Below, piece after piece: positions 14,514 through 60,172 of a stretch of 64,000 bases of DNA. Source of the DNA: an uncultured Candidatus Saccharibacteria bacterium (GTDB taxonomy: Bacteria; Patescibacteriota; Minisyncoccia; Portnoybacterales; UBA2143); the NCBI GenBank assembly GCA_964403725.1, contig CAYOHI010000003.1, positions 14,374 through 78,373 of the forward strand. The letters run 5' to 3'. Below the pieces are notes generated by a model. The model was given only the letters and a program-made list of their open reading frames with translations. It made no database searches and was not told the DNA's origin. Position 1 is the first letter of the stretch. Each line of letters opens with the position of its first letter. A program made the position numbers and the translations under genes.

Positions 14514-15944
14514 TTAAGGACAATCTATGCAAAAGTCTTTCTTTGTTGGCGCAGTGATTTGCGAGGACCTATATGCCTTTATCAGTCCGCTGACCGATAA
14601 ATATCCAGAGATCCAGTGCCATTGGTCTCCATCTCCGCCCAAATTCTCTTTGTAATTCAGAGGAGAGACGGATAAGATATCCTCACCGTGCCAAGCCATG
14701 GTCAAACGAGGTCCGAATTGGATAAAATCCGGAGACTCTAAACCGTTTTCGTTGATATATGCCAAATTGACGCCAGGCGTCAACAGTAGGTTATCAGAGA
14801 TCTCAAAGTCATAGATATGCTGAGTTAAAGTAATCTCTAAGACCTGGTTGTTGTGCGGGTCAGGATCCAGAGGATTGCCATCCCAACTATGTTCATGTTT
14901 CTGATTGCTGGGTAAGGTAAACTCAACATTGAGTTCGGTCTTGGAAAACCCCTTTTCGCCTTGGACACGGCGATCATAGAGATTCACATGTGCCGAGGCT
15001 ACGAGAAGATCATCAGTCTGCTTGCTTCTGTACAGATTGATCTTCCCTTTGCTGACTTGTCTTCCCCAGCCTAAGTCAATGTCCATGTCCCAGTTGTCCT
15101 TGTGGCCGATTAACTTGAGCGACGGCCCGACAACGCCTTTCCACCAGTCATACAGATAATCTTCATCGTCTCCACCGCCGGTGGCGCCGAATCCGAATAC
15201 ACCCAGACAGGCAGAAATACGGTCAGTCACGTTGAATCCGAAAGGCCGAGCACGACCCTTGATCCAAGCGTACCAACCGTCATGGTAGTAATCCTTGTTG
15301 TTCGAGTTCATCCAGCGGTCGGTCTCGTAGATTCCGCCGCCAGTATAAAGGTCCAGACCACAGCTCTTCTTTTTCTTGAGCGCAGCTCCAGTCTCTTTGT
15401 ACCTCGGTACCGGTGGTAATACCGCCGCCTTAACCTTTGCTGGCTTCGGGAACGGGTTTTTCTTGTAGCGAAATCTCGGTACCGGCGGATATTCGGCAGC
15501 CGGTTTTGACTTCTTCCTGATTGCCCAGTTACCGCAGACAAGCGGGTACCAGAGTTCATACTCGTCATCGATGTCATAAACTCTGGCCATGACAGTCTTG
15601 TCAAAACCGACAACAATCGGCTCGTCTTGCCAAATCTTGTAGTTGCCGAAAATCATCTTTTCAAAGGTATCCCCGGTTTCAATCTGTCCCCACCGGGAAT
15701 TTCTGATTCGATGATTAGCGATGATTTCTTTTGCCTTCGTTTTGTCGAGACCAAGACGAATTAACGCCTTATAGTCTCGTCTCAGCTGTTGAGGTGAATA
15801 GAACTCCGGAGATTTCCGGAAGGAATTTCTTCCAGGCTCTTGCCAAATGCGTGCCTCTGCCGCGGAAGCGACAGAGAGCAACAGGATAATTAGCATACCT
15901 ACTGCTCGTTTCATCTGTCGCCTCCTTTGTTTTGCGATTTTCAT
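14514..15944 (-). CDS. large secreted protein of unknown function (island gene 3)
   Basis: N-terminal signal peptide (MKRAVGMLIILLLSVASAAEA). The C-terminal half is rich in G/D/N/W/Y, with alternating patterns reminiscent of beta-rich surface proteins. An alternative start at M11 (15914) is possible. Confidence 0.5.
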   Translation of the reverse strand: MKIAKQRRRQMKRAVGMLIILLLSVASAAEARIWQEPGRNSFRKSPEFYSPQQLRRDYKALIRLGLDKTKAKEIIANHRIRNSRWGQIETGDTFEKMIFGNYKIWQDEPIVVGFDKTVMARVYDIDDEYELWYPLVCGNWAIRKKSKPAAEYPPVPRFRYKKNPFPKPAKVKAAVLPPVPRYKETGAALKKKKSCGLDLYTGGGIYETDRWMNSNNKDYYHDGWYAWIKGRARPFGFNVTDRISACLGVFGFGATGGGDDEDYLYDWWKGVVGPSLKLIGHKDNWDMDIDLGWGRQVSKGKINLYRSKQTDDLLVASAHVNLYDRRVQGEKGFSKTELNVEFTLPSNQKHEHSWDGNPLDPDPHNNQVLEITLTQHIYDFEISDNLLLTPGVNLAYINENGLESPDFIQFGPRLTMAWHGEDILSVSPLNYKENLGGDGDQWHWISGYLSVSGLIKAYRSSQITAPTKKDFCIDCP

Positions 15945-48512: not shown

Positions 48513-50675
48513 TCATTTTGTGAAATTCCTTATTCTTAAGCTATTGCCGATCACAGAAACGCTACTAAAGCTCATGGCAGCAGCTGCAATCATGGGACTA
48601 AGCAAACCAACAGCAGCTAGAGGAATAGCTATAATGTTATAGAAAAAAGCAAAAAATAGGTTTTGTTTGATTGTGGTAAAAGTTTTCTTAGATAAGTCAA
48701 TCGCTTGCACGATTTTTAAGGGATCCCCCTTCATCAAAACAATACTGCCAGCTTCAATAGCGATATCCGTACCACTGCCAACGGCCATGCCTAAATCAGC
48801 CTGAGCCAGAGCTGGCGCATCGTTTATTCCATCACCTACAAAGGCTACCGTCTTATTGCCTCGCTGTAGCTTTTTAATGGCATCTGCCTTCTGATCAGGC
48901 AATACACCAGCTACAATGTACTCAATTCCTAATTGCTCCCCAATGGCTTGGGCTGTCGTTTTATGATCTCCAGTAACCATATACACCGCAATTCCCTTTT
49001 GTCTCAATTGCGCTACAGCTTGAGCCGAGTTTCCACGCACAACGTCAGCCACACCGATAACCCCCTGAATTTGCTTGCCTCTGATAAAAAACATGGCTGT
49101 TTTGCCTTGGCTAGCATACTCATTAAATATACTTCTTTGAACTGAATTCAAATCAATGCCTTGGTCTTCAATTAACGCTCTATTACCTATCAAAATCTCC
49201 TCATTATTAATATATCCACTCAAACCTTTGCCAGATATAGCTTTGATATTTGTTGCATTTGTTAAGTTTAAATTATTGTCTTTGGCATATTTACTAAAAG
49301 CATTGGCTAATGAATGCTCGCTGTTCTTTTCTATAGAACAGGCCAATTCCATCATTTTCTTTTCAGATAAACTATCATTTAAGACCTGTATATCTGTAAT
49401 TTGAGGTTCGCCCTTAGTCAAAGTACCAGTCTTATCAAAAACTACTGTATCTATTTTATGAGCGGTTTCTAAGCTTTGAGATTCTTTAATCAATATCCCC
49501 TTTTCAGCGCCTTTGCCGCTGCTTACCATTATGGCTGTAGGCGTGGCAAGACCAAGAGCGCATGGACAAGCGATGACAAGCACTGCCACAGCGTTAACCA
49601 AGCTATTTTCAAATCCTCCGCTTCCAAATATTTGCCAAGCTAAAAATGTAGCTGTGGCAACAATCATAACAATGGGCACAAATATTCCAGCTACTTTGTC
49701 TGCTAATTTTTGGATAGGAGCCTTAGAACTTTGAGCGTCTTCTACTAATTTAATAATTTGGGCCAGTACTGTATCTTGGCCAATTTTAGTTACTTTGACT
49801 TTAATTGCGCCGTTATTGTTCATGGTTGCTCCATAAACAGTGTCACCCCGCCTTTTTTCTACAGGCATGCTTTCGCCCGTTAGCATAGATTCATCAATGG
49901 AAGTCTCACCTTCAATAATTCGGCCATCTAAAGGAATTTTTTCGCCAGGCTTAATCAATATGATGTCATCAATTTTTACCAAATCAATATCAATTTCTTG
50001 AATTTTGCCTTTTTTAATAACTCTAGCTTTTTTAGCAGCCAACGTTAGCAGCTTTTTAATAGCCATAGAAGCCCGGCCTTTGCTTTTTTCTTCCAAGTAT
50101 TTGCCAAGCAGTATTAAAGTAATTATGACTGCAGCTGTCTCATAATATATATGGGAGTTGTTAAGCATGGCGTATAAGCTATAGAAGTAAGCGGATAATG
50201 TGCCAATAGAAATTAAGGTATCCATATTGGCTTTAAATCTTTTAAGCTGCTTGAGCATACCAGAGTGAAATTGCCAGCCGATAATAAATACCACAATGAA
50301 GGTCAAATTATGCAAAATCCAATTTTTTACACTAACTCCTAAGAATTGCCTGGGCAGATCATATGAAATGAACATTGATGAAAAAACGGGAATTGTAATT
50401 ATTAACGCCCAGATAAATTTACGGAATGATTTATTGACCGTATCGTCTCCTTGTTCATCATTTGCCTTAACAATTTGATAATCTCCAGCTTTTGAAATTG
50501 CCTTTTGAATCTTGTCTTGGCTAGTTAGATTTTCATCAAATTCTAAATAGGCCTTACCTAAACCATAATTAACATTGGCGCTTTTCACGCCTTTTTCCTT
50601 TTTCAGGGCTTTTTCAATATTAATTGCACAAGCTGCACAGTGCATTCCCTTAATTTTAAAGTCTTTTTTTATCAT
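48513..50675 (-). CDS. copA: copper-translocating P1B-type ATPase
   Basis: N-terminal HMA domain [15 protein letters not shown]. Also CPC ([11 protein letters not shown]), DKTGTLT, HP and [10 protein letters not shown] motifs. Confidence 0.92.
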
Positions 50676-50678
50676 ATA

Positions 50679-52094
50679 TTAATTGCTACATTCATTAATA
50701 ACACAATATTGAACTTCAGGCGGATCAGCTGATTCTCGGTTAATTGATCCATCTTCCGATTCTATAACAAACTTGCCCCAAACCATTTGCATCCAGCAAG
50801 AAAATTTAATTTCTCCAGTTCCTTTTGGTAAAAACTCAATAATATTTTCTCCTTTTGTTAATTCCTGTCTAATATCGTAGTCACTTAATAATATTTCATC
50901 TGTGCACCCTGTCATTTGCTTAACATTAATAATCCAACGCACAGGGATGCCTTGTCTAATGTGCAATACATTTGGGCTGTATCCTTTATATGAAAGCTCC
51001 ATATTTATTACCTGATACTCCATATCATCAGAAATCATATATTCTGACTGGCCAATCTGATCAGAGGCTGATATGCCCCGAAATCCATAACCAAAATTAA
51101 TTAATCCTCGATTAAACATGAATAAACCCAAGACTATTACTATAATGCCAGAAACTTTCATTATCTGCTTAATTCTGTGTTGGCTAATTAATGTTACAAA
51201 ACTTCCAAAACCAAACATTAATGGAACAGTTCCTAGGCCATAAATTCCCATAGACAAAGCACCGCTAATAATACTGCCTGAAGCAAGAGCGTATAGCTGC
51301 ATAGCTTGTAAAGGACCACATGGCATAAATCCATTTAAAAGTCCTATAACAAATGGTCCTTTGGGACTCTTGCTGTAACGCTGATTGTAAAGATAACGAG
51401 CAATAAAGGACGGCGTTCTTAATTTAATAATTTCCAACCATTTAAAATTAGTTACCAATGATAATCCTAGTAAAGCCATAAAAATGCCAGCTCCTATGGT
51501 AACTATGCCAGTAAATATGGAGTTAATTGCAAAAAAAGAGCCAAAACCACCTAAGATAGCGCCAATAACTGCATATGAAATTATTCTACCCAGATTATAT
51601 TGCCAGTGCCTAATATATTTACCATGGCATTTAGAGCTTTGGTTAACGCTATAGGCAACAACCAATCCTCCACACATACCAATACAATGAAATCCTGCTA
51701 ACAGGCCAATAACCAAGATTAACCAATAACTGATTTTCTGTTCATCTAATATTGAAAATATCTCAAGCAAACCATAATCACGAATTAACTGATAAGCAAT
51801 GATAAATAGGAAGATTAGGATCAAGCTAATTAGAATATTTCTGAATAAATGACCTGGTTTTCTCTTTTTTTGATTCGGCAAATCATGTTCCATTTCATAG
51901 CCAAGCTCTTTAACTCTTTTGGCAATATTTTTTTGACTAATCTTATCATCATCATACTCAATTTGAGCCTGTCCAGTTTGATGATTTACTTTAATGTGAT
52001 TGACGCCTTTAAGCGCGTCCAGTTCTGATTCCAAAAGTATTTTACAGCTTTTACAATAGATGCCTTGGATATGTCCTTTGATTTTTTTAAGCAT
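50679..52094 (-). CDS. three-module metal-handling membrane protein: HMA-like domain, polytopic membrane domain, and C-terminal Cys/Met-containing extracytoplasmic domain
   Basis: N-terminus IYCKSCKILLESELDAL resembles an HMA domain with CxxC. The membrane core carries GFHCIGMCGG. The C-terminal roughly 110 aa contain GCTDE and SCWMQM (Cys/Met, cupredoxin-like?). Confidence 0.5.
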   Translation of the reverse strand: MLKKIKGHIQGIYCKSCKILLESELDALKGVNHIKVNHQTGQAQIEYDDDKISQKNIAKRVKELGYEMEHDLPNQKKRKPGHLFRNILISLILIFLFIIAYQLIRDYGLLEIFSILDEQKISYWLILVIGLLAGFHCIGMCGGLVVAYSVNQSSKCHGKYIRHWQYNLGRIISYAVIGAILGGFGSFFAINSIFTGIVTIGAGIFMALLGLSLVTNFKWLEIIKLRTPSFIARYLYNQRYSKSPKGPFVIGLLNGFMPCGPLQAMQLYALASGSIISGALSMGIYGLGTVPLMFGFGSFVTLISQHRIKQIMKVSGIIVIVLGLFMFNRGLINFGYGFRGISASDQIGQSEYMISDDMEYQVINMELSYKGYSPNVLHIRQGIPVRWIINVKQMTGCTDEILLSDYDIRQELTKGENIIEFLPKGTGEIKFSCWMQMVWGKFVIESEDGSINRESADPPEVQYCVINECSN

Positions 52095-56815: not shown

Positions 56816-57265
56816 TTATATCGCTATTCGAGAAAACTTGCCTATTTTAATATTCTCCCCTAGTTTGCCAACTAATTCTTTGACCAAGCCATCAACAGTC
56901 TTTTCCGGGTCCTTGATGAAAGGCTGTTCAGCTAATTCTTTTTCATCTTTTGGATCCATAGCTGCAATATGCATGGCAATATCATGGGCTAAAGATTTAA
57001 ATTCTTCATTTTTAGCAACAAAGTCAGTTTCGCAGTTCAGTTCAAAAAGAACACCAACTTTGCCATTGTTATGAATATATGGCTCGATTGTTCCTTGCTT
57101 AGCTTCCCTATCTGATTTTTTAAGAGCTTTTTCTGCTCCTTTTGCTTCTAGAACTTTAATAGCTTTTTTTTCGTCTCCTTCAGCTTCCTCCAGGGCTTTC
57201 TTGCATTCCATGATTGAGAAGCCTGTCTTCTGACGAAATTCTTTGATTTGGTCCATTGAAATCAT
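56816..57265 (-). CDS. tsf: elongation factor Ts (short form)
   Basis: N-terminal UBA-like FRQKTGFSIMECKKALEEAEGDEKKAIKVLEAKG. Core GKVGVLFELNCETDFVAKNEEF. Confidence 0.85.
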   Translation of the reverse strand: MISMDQIKEFRQKTGFSIMECKKALEEAEGDEKKAIKVLEAKGAEKALKKSDREAKQGTIEPYIHNNGKVGVLFELNCETDFVAKNEEFKSLAHDIAMHIAAMDPKDEKELAEQPFIKDPEKTVDGLVKELVGKLGENIKIGKFSRIAI

Positions 57266-58028: not shown

Positions 58029-58154
58029 AATTTAAAAACCAAAGATGTGTAACTACATCCTTGTTGCTTTACTTTGAATTAAGATTAGTATATCATATTG
58101 TAAAATTAAATCAAGAGTATTGCCATAATTAATTCAATCTGCTATTATAAAACC

Positions 58155-58421
58155 ATGAAAAAAGACATTCATCCAAAATATTTTAAAAAAGCTAAAGCTA
58201 AATGCGCCTGTGGCGCCACTTTTGATATTGGCTCAACCAAAGAAAATACAGAAGTGGAAATCTGTTCTCAGTGTCATCCTTTCTACACTGGCAAAGAAAA
58301 AATCATTGAAACTGGCCAAGTAGAGAAATTCAGAGCTAGATTAGCTAAAAAGCAGGAAAACAAGCCTAAAAAAGAAAAGCGAAAAAAGATAAAGGCAAAA
58401 AAGAAGAAGAAAAATGAGTAA
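58155..58421 (+). CDS. rpmE: 50S ribosomal protein L31 (Cys4 type) with Lys-rich C-terminal extension
   Basis: [22 protein letters not shown]...[11 protein letters not shown]. Confidence 0.9.
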
Positions 58422-59148
58422 AGCTATCATTATTGAAATACGAGCTGGTGCTGGTGGTGACGAAGCAGCACTTTTTGCCGCTGATCTTTTCAGAATGTAT
58501 TCCCGCTTTGCCGAAAAAAACGACTGGAAAACTTCTTTGATTAACAGCAATCAAATCGGCATTGGCGGATACAAGGAATTAATCTTTGAAATTAAAGGTG
58601 AAGACGCCTTTGAAAAGCTTCAATATGAAGGTGGTGTTCATCGTGTCCAAAGAATCCCATCAACTGAAAAATCTGGGAGAATCCACACTTCTACTGTTTC
58701 AGTTGCCATCATGCCCCAGGCCACTGAAACTGAAGTTAAAATCAATCCATCAGAAATCAGAATTGATGTCCTGCGAGCTTCTGGTCCTGGAGGCCAGCAT
58801 GTTAACAAAACTGAATCAGCTGTCCGAATCACTCACCTAGCTACTGGTATAATGGTCACTTGTCAGGAAGAAAGGCATCAAATACAAAATAGAGAACGAG
58901 CCATGAATGTACTACGAGCTCGTTTACTTGATAGAAAAAGAAAAGAAGAGCTTACTGCCAGAGGTGATGAAAGAAAAAACCAGATTGGAACTGCTGATCG
59001 GAGTGAAAAAATTAGGACTTACAATTACCCTCAAAACAGGATTACTGATCACCGTATCAAAAAATCCTGGCATAATTTGGAAAAAATCATGGATGGCGAC
59101 CTAAAACCCATCCTCAAAGCTTTTAATAAATTAAAAAAGAAAAGGTAA
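58414..59148 (+). CDS. prfA: class I peptide chain release factor, RF1-like, lacking N-terminal domain 1
   Basis: It begins at the domain-2 block [23 protein letters not shown]. It has the decoding tripeptide region [14 protein letters not shown] (PST, compared with RF1 PAT) and GGQ ([19 protein letters not shown]). The roughly 105-aa N-terminal domain present in canonical RF1 is absent. The start overlaps the rpmE stop. Confidence 0.7.
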
Positions 59149-59149
59149 C

Positions 59150-60127
59150 ATGAAAAAAAGAATCTTTAGCGGCATTCAGCCAACCGGTTCAATCCATATC
59201 GGCAATTATCTAGGTGCCATAAAGAACTGGGTTGAACTCCAGGAGGAATATGATTCAATTTTCTGTGTGGTTGATCTGCACGCTTTAACTAATCCTGAAG
59301 CTTCCAAAGGATTACAGAAGAATATCTATGATTTAGCTACTGATTTAATGGCATCCGGGCTAGATCCTAAAAAATGCACTCTTTTTGTCCAATCGCACGT
59401 TCCAGAACATACTGAACTGACTTGGCTTTTAAATACTATTACTCCTATCGCTGAATTAGAAAGGATGACCCAATTCAAAGACAAGGCTAAGCAGTTTAAA
59501 AATAGTATTAATATGGGATTGTTTGGCTATCCTGTCCTAATGGCTGCTGATATTCTAATTTACCAGACAAATACTGTACCAGTTGGCGAAGACCAGAAAC
59601 AACACGTTGAATTAGCCAGAATTATTTCCAGGAAATTCAATAACCAATTTGGAGAAATGTTTACCGTTCCTGAATCATTAGTTTACAAAAGCGGAGCTAG
59701 AATAATGTCTCTAGCTGATCCATCTAAGAAGATGTCTAAAAGCGTTCCTCAAGGATGTTTAGAAATGAATGATTCCCCTAGTGTTATTGAAGAAAAGATT
59801 AAAAAAGCAGTAACTGATTCAGAGCAAGGCATTGAATACAATCCCAAAAAACCAGCTATCGCTAACTTAATGACAATCTATTCAATTTTCTCAAAGCTAT
59901 CATTTGATGAGATTGAAAAGAAATACAAGGATAAAGGATATGCTGAATTCAAGAAAGATTTGGCAGATGTAGTAATTAAAGGATTAAAACCATTCCAAGA
60001 CAAGAAAAAGGAATTAGATAAGAATCCTGATTATGTTAAGAAATCACTGGCAGATGGAGCCAAAAAAGTCCAGAAAATTGCTCAAAAGAATCTATTGGAA
60101 GCAAAAAAGAAAATGGGCCTTGTATAG
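59150..60127 (+). CDS. trpS: tryptophanyl-tRNA synthetase
   Basis: IFSGIQPTGSIHIGNYLGA (HIGH-type) and KMSKS motifs. Confidence 0.95.
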   Translation: MKKRIFSGIQPTGSIHIGNYLGAIKNWVELQEEYDSIFCVVDLHALTNPEASKGLQKNIYDLATDLMASGLDPKKCTLFVQSHVPEHTELTWLLNTITPIAELERMTQFKDKAKQFKNSINMGLFGYPVLMAADILIYQTNTVPVGEDQKQHVELARIISRKFNNQFGEMFTVPESLVYKSGARIMSLADPSKKMSKSVPQGCLEMNDSPSVIEEKIKKAVTDSEQGIEYNPKKPAIANLMTIYSIFSKLSFDEIEKKYKDKGYAEFKKDLADVVIKGLKPFQDKKKELDKNPDYVKKSLADGAKKVQKIAQKNLLEAKKKMGLV

Positions 60128-60145
60128 CCCACTTGAATATCTATT

Positions 60146-60172
60146 AAAAACTACCCTCCGGGGTAGTTTTTT
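60146..60172. terminator. bidirectional rho-independent terminator after trpS
   Basis: CTACCC-TCCG-GGGTAG hairpin followed by TTTTTT. Confidence 0.65.

Follow-up and report, generated by a model that had tools for sequence, protein, structure and literature searches.

The DNA analysed here is a 64,000-nt stretch of contig CAYOHI010000003.1 from an uncultured Candidatus Saccharibacteria bacterium (assembly GCA_964403725.1) and is referred to below, at its full length, as the window. It contains the gene order rpmE-prfA-trpS, encoding ribosomal protein L31, peptide chain release factor 1 (RF1) and tryptophanyl-tRNA synthetase (Table 1). Profile matches and alignment both indicate that the product of this prfA gene lacks domain 1, the N-terminal helical RF3/GTPase-interacting domain of ~105 aa. 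In Pfam, the PCRF match is confined to positions 100-194 of the 194-position model (8e-45), and the RF-1 domain is complete (positions 2-116 of 116, 1e-42). The NCBIfam models for RF1 are matched from position ~104-112 onward: NF001859 at positions 104-342 of 347 (400.2 bits, cutoff 400) and TIGR00019 at positions 112-351 of 361 (395.1 bits, short of the 423.25 cutoff), a score deficit that matches the missing N-terminal model positions, about 105-110. The score against the RF2 model TIGR00020 is far lower (250.2 bits against a cutoff of 370). Residues 107-344 of Thermus thermophilus RF1 align without gaps to the window protein at 56% identity, and the part that is absent is, as judged from this alignment, exactly domain 1.

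The reading frame upstream of the prfA ATG is open for 7 codons only, from position 58393, and a hidden N-terminal extension caused by a wrong start or a frameshift is excluded because the DNA upstream is occupied by rpmE and then by a promoter region. A tblastn search with the window RF1 found no second class I release factor in the window. An initial annotation made from the sequence had described this gene as the window's only class I release factor, an RF1 of 244 aa that retains the PST and GGQ motifs, lacks the whole of domain 1 and has no upstream exon or frameshifted N-terminal part; the model coverage, the open reading frame (ORF), the T. thermophilus alignment and the tblastn search agree with it on each of these points, and no match to domain 1 was found in the window. 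As the ORF lacks one feature of the canonical RF1 architecture, domain 1, and has the others, orthology included, it is classed as an RF1 variant.

Table 1. Features of the rpmE-prfA-trpS locus (window coordinates)
Feature	Position	Strand	Description or basis
Promoter-like site, TTGCCA-17-TATTAT with upstream TG	58120-58148	+	Consensus scan, 10/12
rpmE, ribosomal protein L31	58155-58421	+	88 aa; Pfam Ribosomal_L31 6e-27, NCBIfam L31 1e-26
Start/stop overlap ATGAGTAA, prfA ATG and rpmE TAA	58414-58421	+	8 nt; sequence
prfA, RF1 with domains 2, 3 and 4 only	58414-59148	+	244 aa; ATG start, TAA stop
Codons of G14-G15-D16-E17	58453-58464	+	G14 and E17 align with G116 and E119 of T. thermophilus RF1; gapless alignment
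PST, the RF1 PxT "anticodon" tripeptide, residues 82-84	58657-58665	+	T. thermophilus P184-x-T186
GGQ peptidyl-tRNA hydrolysis motif, residues 126-128	58789-58797	+	Sequence and alignments
trpS, tryptophanyl-tRNA synthetase	59150-60127	+	325 aa; Pfam tRNA-synt_1b 1.8e-76
Terminator-like hairpin followed by T-run, 3' of trpS	60146-60171	+	Pattern scan

The residues expected of a working RF1 are retained. The first base of the stop codon is read in T. thermophilus RF1 by two residues of the helix alpha5 tip, G116 and E119. These two residues, Q181, P184, T186, I192, H193 and T194 (T. thermophilus numbering) and the GGQ motif are all identical in the window protein, where Q79, I90, H91 and T92 take the places of Q181, I192, H193 and T194. 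Across 54 homologues of 53-90% identity, the stop-codon-reading residues and GGQ are invariant except for the equivalent of I192, which lies outside the listed invariant or nearly invariant columns of that alignment. An AlphaFold2 model of the window RF1 (mean pLDDT 85.3, pTM 0.71) superimposes on ribosome-bound RF1 with a TM of 0.90 for T. thermophilus and about 0.9 for Escherichia coli, at a root-mean-square deviation of ~2.5 Å, and closed crystal forms of RF1 fit the model less well (TM ~0.6). The ratio of nonsynonymous to synonymous substitution rates (dN/dS) in pairwise comparisons of the short prfA with its relatives is 0.035-0.106; most of these pairs are close to synonymous saturation, and for L003/L004, the least saturated of them, the value is 0.035. 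Strong purifying selection acts on the gene.

The initial annotation had raised the possibility that the truncation is a feature of the lineage, and the survey of related genomes supports this. An independent JGI assembly (L039) calls an identical 244-aa PCRF and RF-1 gene overlapping an 88-aa L31 gene, and ENA and Logan assemblies from other samples contain flanking genes of the same locus. Among the 120 closest database proteins (66-100% identity), drawn from many samples and from contigs of up to 744 kb, 117 have no more than 15 residues before the EIRAG block. Several of the relatives are labelled by NCBI as [quoted passage not shown], and others, from Parcubacteria or Portnoybacteria, as "peptide chain release factor 1". 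In a scan with a single genome for each GTDB species, 38 Patescibacteria-type loci were obtained, 37 of them with a complete RF1 ORF; the sampling favours relatives of the query, and its proportions are not population estimates. RF1 lengths in the 37 loci are 228-255 aa (19 loci, which carry the same truncation), 274-307 aa (6), 324-326 aa (5) and 339-360 aa (7). Irrespective of RF1 length, the gene immediately 5' of prfA is rpmE, in the same orientation, in 34 of the 37 loci, and in 15 of 20 short-form genes (those of the 19 loci and the window) the spacing between rpmE and prfA is -14 to +18 nt. This common adjacency and tight spacing identify the short gene as the positional ortholog of full-length prfA. 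One locus (L026:2676-2918) has 363 nt between rpmE and a short prfA, the only large gap of its kind; a relic of domain 1 was considered there and ruled out, as the interval consists of an N run and a tandem repeat, which reads as (IRI)n when translated on the minus strand, and is a scaffold gap or repeat.

Between the full-length and the shortest forms, PCRF coverage in Pfam declines in step with RF1 length. Forms of 295-326 aa begin at PCRF position ~41-49 and lack the first helices, forms of 274-286 aa (L007 and L009) begin at ~96-98 after an unrelated peptide of 35-40 aa, and forms of up to 255 aa begin at ~92-100. In L007 (286 aa, L007:6403-6530) and L009 (274 aa, L009:2206-2320), domain 1 is exchanged for an acidic, Trp-containing peptide (…FTAEDWKNY/KKY…), and in both loci rpmE lies on the opposite strand. 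A 287-aa protein (P0099) keeps the first ~45 residues of domain 1 fused directly to domain 2. In a neighbour-joining tree, P0099 is placed among short sequences, and the short clade of the window, with more than 120 sequences, has as its sister the nearest full-length proteins, P0116 and P0117 (344 aa, 66-68% identity). In another neighbour-joining tree, of the shared RF1 core (200 bootstraps), the clade of the window is uniformly short (100% support). Elsewhere in this second tree, the 324-326-aa clade also takes in L017 (240 aa; 95%), and L033 (248 aa) and L037 (255 aa) group with 281-339-aa forms of the Levybacteria/Daviesbacteria type (75-84%). Erosion of domain 1, partial or complete, occurs in several lineages of Patescibacteria. 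A canonical domain 1 is still recognisable in the long forms, and it must therefore have been lost completely in at least three separately supported lineages.

Four representatives of 50%-identity clusters (P0130, P0145, P0231 and P0245) join a domain-1-less RF1 core to fragments of PrmC_N or bacterial PH (bPH) domains. Most likely, the gene calls ran on across prfA-prmC or lie at contig edges, and entries of this kind make N-terminally short RF1s outside Patescibacteria look more numerous than they are. A circular permutation that moved domain 1 to the C terminus was rejected: the C-terminal extensions are PrmC_N or bPH, and PCRF positions 1-95 do not occur in them.

The genetic code of the window is the standard one. 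Its 66 non-overlapping ORFs of at least 100 aa end with TAA in 41 cases, TAG in 14 and TGA in 11; no in-frame TGA or TAG was found inside conserved genes of the window. Two full-length P-type ATPases end with TGA at their natural C-termini, and in two relatives the short prfA itself ends with TGA. With a standard code, termination at UAG requires RF1, and the RF2 that reads UGA would be encoded elsewhere, outside the window. Neither RF2 nor RF3 was found in the window or in 36 related loci, no translational GTPase is present among the ten largest ORFs of the window (all of at least 422 aa), and the extra contig flanks (~19 kb) contain no release factor gene. A scan of AT-rich metagenomic prfB comprising 120 loci gave none attributable to Patescibacteria and none cleanly without domain 1. 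In the gene table for the complete genome of the cultured saccharibacterium Southlakia epibionticum, RF1 (355 aa, 1068 nt), RF2 (360 aa, 1083 nt), PrmC and ribosome recycling factor (RRF) are listed (PMC10633639), and the term "release factor 3" appears in none of eight supplementary files on this organism (PMC10633639).

A separate observation concerns RF2. In four short-read metagenome contigs (SPAdes-type or equivalent), prfB carries one extra C just before the region coding for GGQ, between the Ser and Gly codons of R-A-S-G-A-G-G-Q. Three of the contigs, L116 (L116:4300-5600; OBLG01000001.1, 767,504 bp), L125 and L136, represent one species and L143 another, both AT-rich; at least one of the four, L136, is labelled human gut. 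The sequence reads AGA GCA TCA C GGA GCA GGA GGT CAA in the first species and ...TCT C GGA GCA GGG GGG CAA in the other. The same four genes keep the canonical CTT TGA C frameshift site. Past the extra C, the 0 frame stops after 8-14 codons and the +1 frame is the intact C-terminal half of RF2, for which dN/dS between the two species is 0.026 at a dS of 1.37, indicating strong purifying selection. CGG is a rare codon in these loci, and TGA ends 1 of 26 long ORFs there. The extra C may thus mark a possible second conserved programmed +1 frameshift, at UCN-CGG-A, of which no mention was found in a 2025 survey of prfB frameshifting (PMC12421855).

The organisation of the locus suggests that prfA is translationally coupled to rpmE, the start of one gene overlapping the stop of the other. 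A frameshift within the A-rich tail of rpmE, at its A-AAA-AAG heptamer, was considered as a source of an L31-RF1 fusion and rejected: a -1 shift enters the wrong frame, as prfA lies in the +1 frame, and stops at once. Upstream of rpmE is a 126-nt divergent promoter region shared with rpsB. A unit in which rpmE, prfA and trpS are transcribed together probably starts at the promoter-like site just 5' of rpmE; the site is a pattern match, of a type whose number does not exceed the shuffled expectation. The trpS gene begins 1 nt past the prfA stop, the gene order is the same in L039, and trpS probably belongs to one operon with prfA, a picture drawn from such sequence patterns. Terminator-like sites like the one 3' of trpS number 7 in the region, against 1.9 expected. 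The L31 protein has a Lys-rich C-terminal tail of ~20 aa (58355-58418, + strand), and among the related loci its length ranges over 69-111 aa with no obvious relation to that of RF1.

Several other genes of the window deserve mention. Elongation factor Ts (EF-Ts) of E. coli has 282 aa, and the Thermus-type form is already short; the EF-Ts gene of the window (56816-57265, - strand) encodes only 149 aa, and the independent assembly L039 has the same gene called. The protein aligns to the 196-aa T. thermophilus EF-Ts at positions 2-116 and 152-192, with ~36 residues deleted internally, and is thus another pared-down translation factor near the short RF1. Among genes for the cell envelope and glycosyltransferases, a 476-aa ORF (14514-15944, - strand) has no Pfam match at E <= 0.001. 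A P-type ATPase of 720 aa with an HMA domain forms a copper-handling pair (48513-52094, - strand) with the 471-aa protein that comes after it, in which HMA, a DsbD_2 transmembrane region and a cupredoxin-like domain are fused.

Four other accounts of the short gene must be weighed against the reading that it is the orthologous RF1 of its organism. A single window, taken alone, leaves room for an assembly error, a frameshift, a wrong start or a decaying gene, and the TIGR00019 score does fall below its cutoff. An artefact or pseudogene of this kind is nevertheless barely conceivable: the same 244-aa gene in L039 and the short homologues contradict a sequencing or assembly frameshift, flanking genes recur in the ENA and Logan assemblies, and nearly all of the close homologues, from many samples, are equally short. 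Moreover, the upstream DNA with its 7 open codons is filled by rpmE, no remnant of domain 1 exists in any frame, and the decoding and catalytic residues are conserved at dN/dS values of 0.04-0.1. The gene might instead encode a specialised paralogue, a rescue or auxiliary factor without domain 1, with a canonical full-length prfA elsewhere in the genome. Bacteria do keep such paralogues, PrfH and ArfB being the examples (PMC1586002, PMC6514570). Here, however, the gene occupies the same position next to rpmE as full-length RF1 of related genomes, its product branches inside RF1 beside full-length forms, and it keeps all of the RF1 stop-codon-reading residues, which are altered in PrfH. The scores for PrfH (TIGR03072; 106.3 bits, cutoff 166.65) and ArfB (47.7 bits, cutoff 100, GGQ region only) are far under their cutoffs, and there is no RtcB neighbour. 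By tblastn, the 36 related loci each hold one release factor gene within ±10 kb, the only doubled case being a fragment pair (L020/L038) of one metagenome-assembled genome. We regard a paralogue as very unlikely.

Still less probable is a split gene, with domain 1 made as a separate polypeptide elsewhere and associating with the 244-aa core. The initial annotation had recommended looking for a domain-1-like ORF; the window, ~19 kb of additional flanking sequence and the ±10 kb around 19 other short genes contain none. The domain-1 sequences of nine long Patescibacteria RF1s gave a best tblastn E value of 0.29 in the window, and 0.02, attributable to coiled-coil noise, against the window and all short-form loci together; a database search with residues 1-101 of P0116 returned zero matches, missing even the parent protein, and so is uninformative. 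The intermediate forms described above also show progressive deletion and not fission. Altered decoding, whether by stop-codon reassignment or by an omnipotent RF1 that replaces RF2, would be consistent with the lack of prfB in the window and its extra flanks, and reassignment had been suggested by the initial annotation. It is highly improbable: the stop-codon usage of the window gives no sign of it, since TAA, TAG and TGA all terminate genes (41/14/11), TGA closes conserved proteins at their normal C-termini, and the PxT tripeptide and the other specificity residues are unchanged and of the RF1 type.

It is thus quite likely that the window gene is the organism's orthologous and functional RF1, from which domain 1 was lost by the reductive evolution typical of Patescibacteria. 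Domain 1 is the part of RF1 that links it to RF3 and, on the ribosome, to the L11/GTPase-associated region. In a phylum without RF3 it would be left without its main job, and genome streamlining would pare it down repeatedly. The remaining domains 2/4, with the PxT reader, would still identify a UAA or UAG codon in the A site, and the GGQ hydrolase of domain 3 would release the peptide. Lacking domain 1, the short RF1 would neither stimulate RF3 nor be recycled by it, and would depart from the ribosome alone or during recycling driven by RRF and EF-G; the TGA stops imply a separate RF2 for UGA, with its gene somewhere outside the window. According to Baranov et al. (2006, PMC1586002), prfC, the gene for RF3, is not essential, and none has been found in small genomes; the lineage is probably without it, which for the window's own lineage is a prediction. 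The initial annotation had foreseen a different recycling mechanism. RF3-independent recycling is indeed what the loss of the domain predicts, but it is not new, as many bacteria with small genomes already work in this way (PMC1586002).

Several points weigh against this interpretation. Southlakia, the example of an RF3-free organism, has a full-length RF1, which means that the lack of RF3 alone does not force the loss of domain 1. Comparison of short and long forms revealed no convincing compensatory signature, merely seven weakly discriminating columns that mostly reflect E-to-K/Q drift. The 244-aa protein should, from its conserved residues, release peptides at UAA and UAG; this activity is inferred, and so are, for organisms with a short RF1, the lack of RF3, the existence of an RF2 together with its length, and the lack of any further prfA of full length. 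The number of losses is a lower bound, as the deep nodes of the RF1 tree are weak (16-61%). A broader proposal is more tentative: erosion and repeated complete loss of domain 1 could possibly be a systematic trait of Patescibacteria, marking a simplified, RF3-free termination cycle in which RF1 would bind to and depart from the ribosome unaided by the L11 stalk or RF3 and which may have co-evolved with the unusual ribosome of the candidate phyla radiation (CPR). If so, Patescibacteria would supply natural minimal RF1s for dissecting the contribution of domain 1.

As a natural form under strong selection, the short RF1 parallels the laboratory finding of an RF1 that is active after removal of domain 1, and it supports the view of this domain as an accessory for RF3-assisted recycling that lies outside the core termination machinery; to a specialist it would be a neat confirmation rather than a shock. 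The graded lengths of 360, 325, 295, 275 and 244 aa constitute a data set for stepwise domain loss in an essential translation factor. There is also a practical consequence. Because TIGR00019 misses the short RF1s and NCBI labels several of them as PCRF domain-containing proteins, automated annotation can wrongly call prfA absent from many Patescibacteria, and such false absences could mislead inferences on gene content or stop-codon reassignment. A full-text literature search found no description of a domain-1-less RF1 in CPR/Patescibacteria. The release-factor survey of Burroughs and Aravind (2019; PMC6514570), in the passages that match the subject, names domain 1 the "GTPase-interacting domain" and makes no mention of an RF1 without it.

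Among known systems, several other factors naturally lack domain 1. PrfH (RFH) is a natural class I release factor homologue without domain 1 that keeps the codon-recognition and GGQ domains, and its gene start is likewise tightly coupled to an upstream gene; unlike the window RF1, it carries changed recognition residues, occurs as a pair with RtcB2 and serves in the rescue of damaged ribosomes. A PrfH identity for the window ORF was rejected on the TIGR03072 score, the neighbouring rpmE and trpS genes and the RF1-type residues. ArfB, ICT1 and C12orf65 also have a GGQ domain and no domain 1, but they have no codon-recognition domain and probe the empty mRNA channel with a basic C-terminal tail. 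In the window RF1 the codon-recognition domain is intact, and an identity as ArfB was rejected on this ground and on the low score confined to the GGQ region. RF2 was likewise rejected, since the tripeptide is PST and not SPF and the TIGR00020 score lies well below cutoff. Canonical RF1 (T. thermophilus, PDB 4V63; E. coli) is a close match: domains 2, 3 and 4 correspond, the PxT and GGQ motifs, the helix-alpha5 tip and the switch-loop region are kept, the predicted fold agrees (TM 0.90), and the rpmE-prfA context is that of full-length Patescibacteria RF1. The difference lies in the missing domain of ~105 aa, with scores at or below the cutoffs of the curated models.

That difference is reproduced in the truncated E. 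coli RF1 of Mora et al. (2003), which like the window RF1 consists of domains 2-4 only. According to the summary of this work in Baranov et al. (2006, PMC1586002), deletion or exchange of the N-terminal domain leaves codon specificity unchanged, the domain is dispensable for peptide release in vitro, and the truncated RF1 works in vivo; stimulation of nucleotide exchange on RF3 depends on the domain, and the truncated protein is incapable of it. The E. coli protein is an artificial deletion in an organism that contains RF3, whereas the window RF1, known from its sequence, is natural, lineage-wide and selected. By analogy, the window RF1 may be regarded as the natural functional equivalent of the engineered factor.

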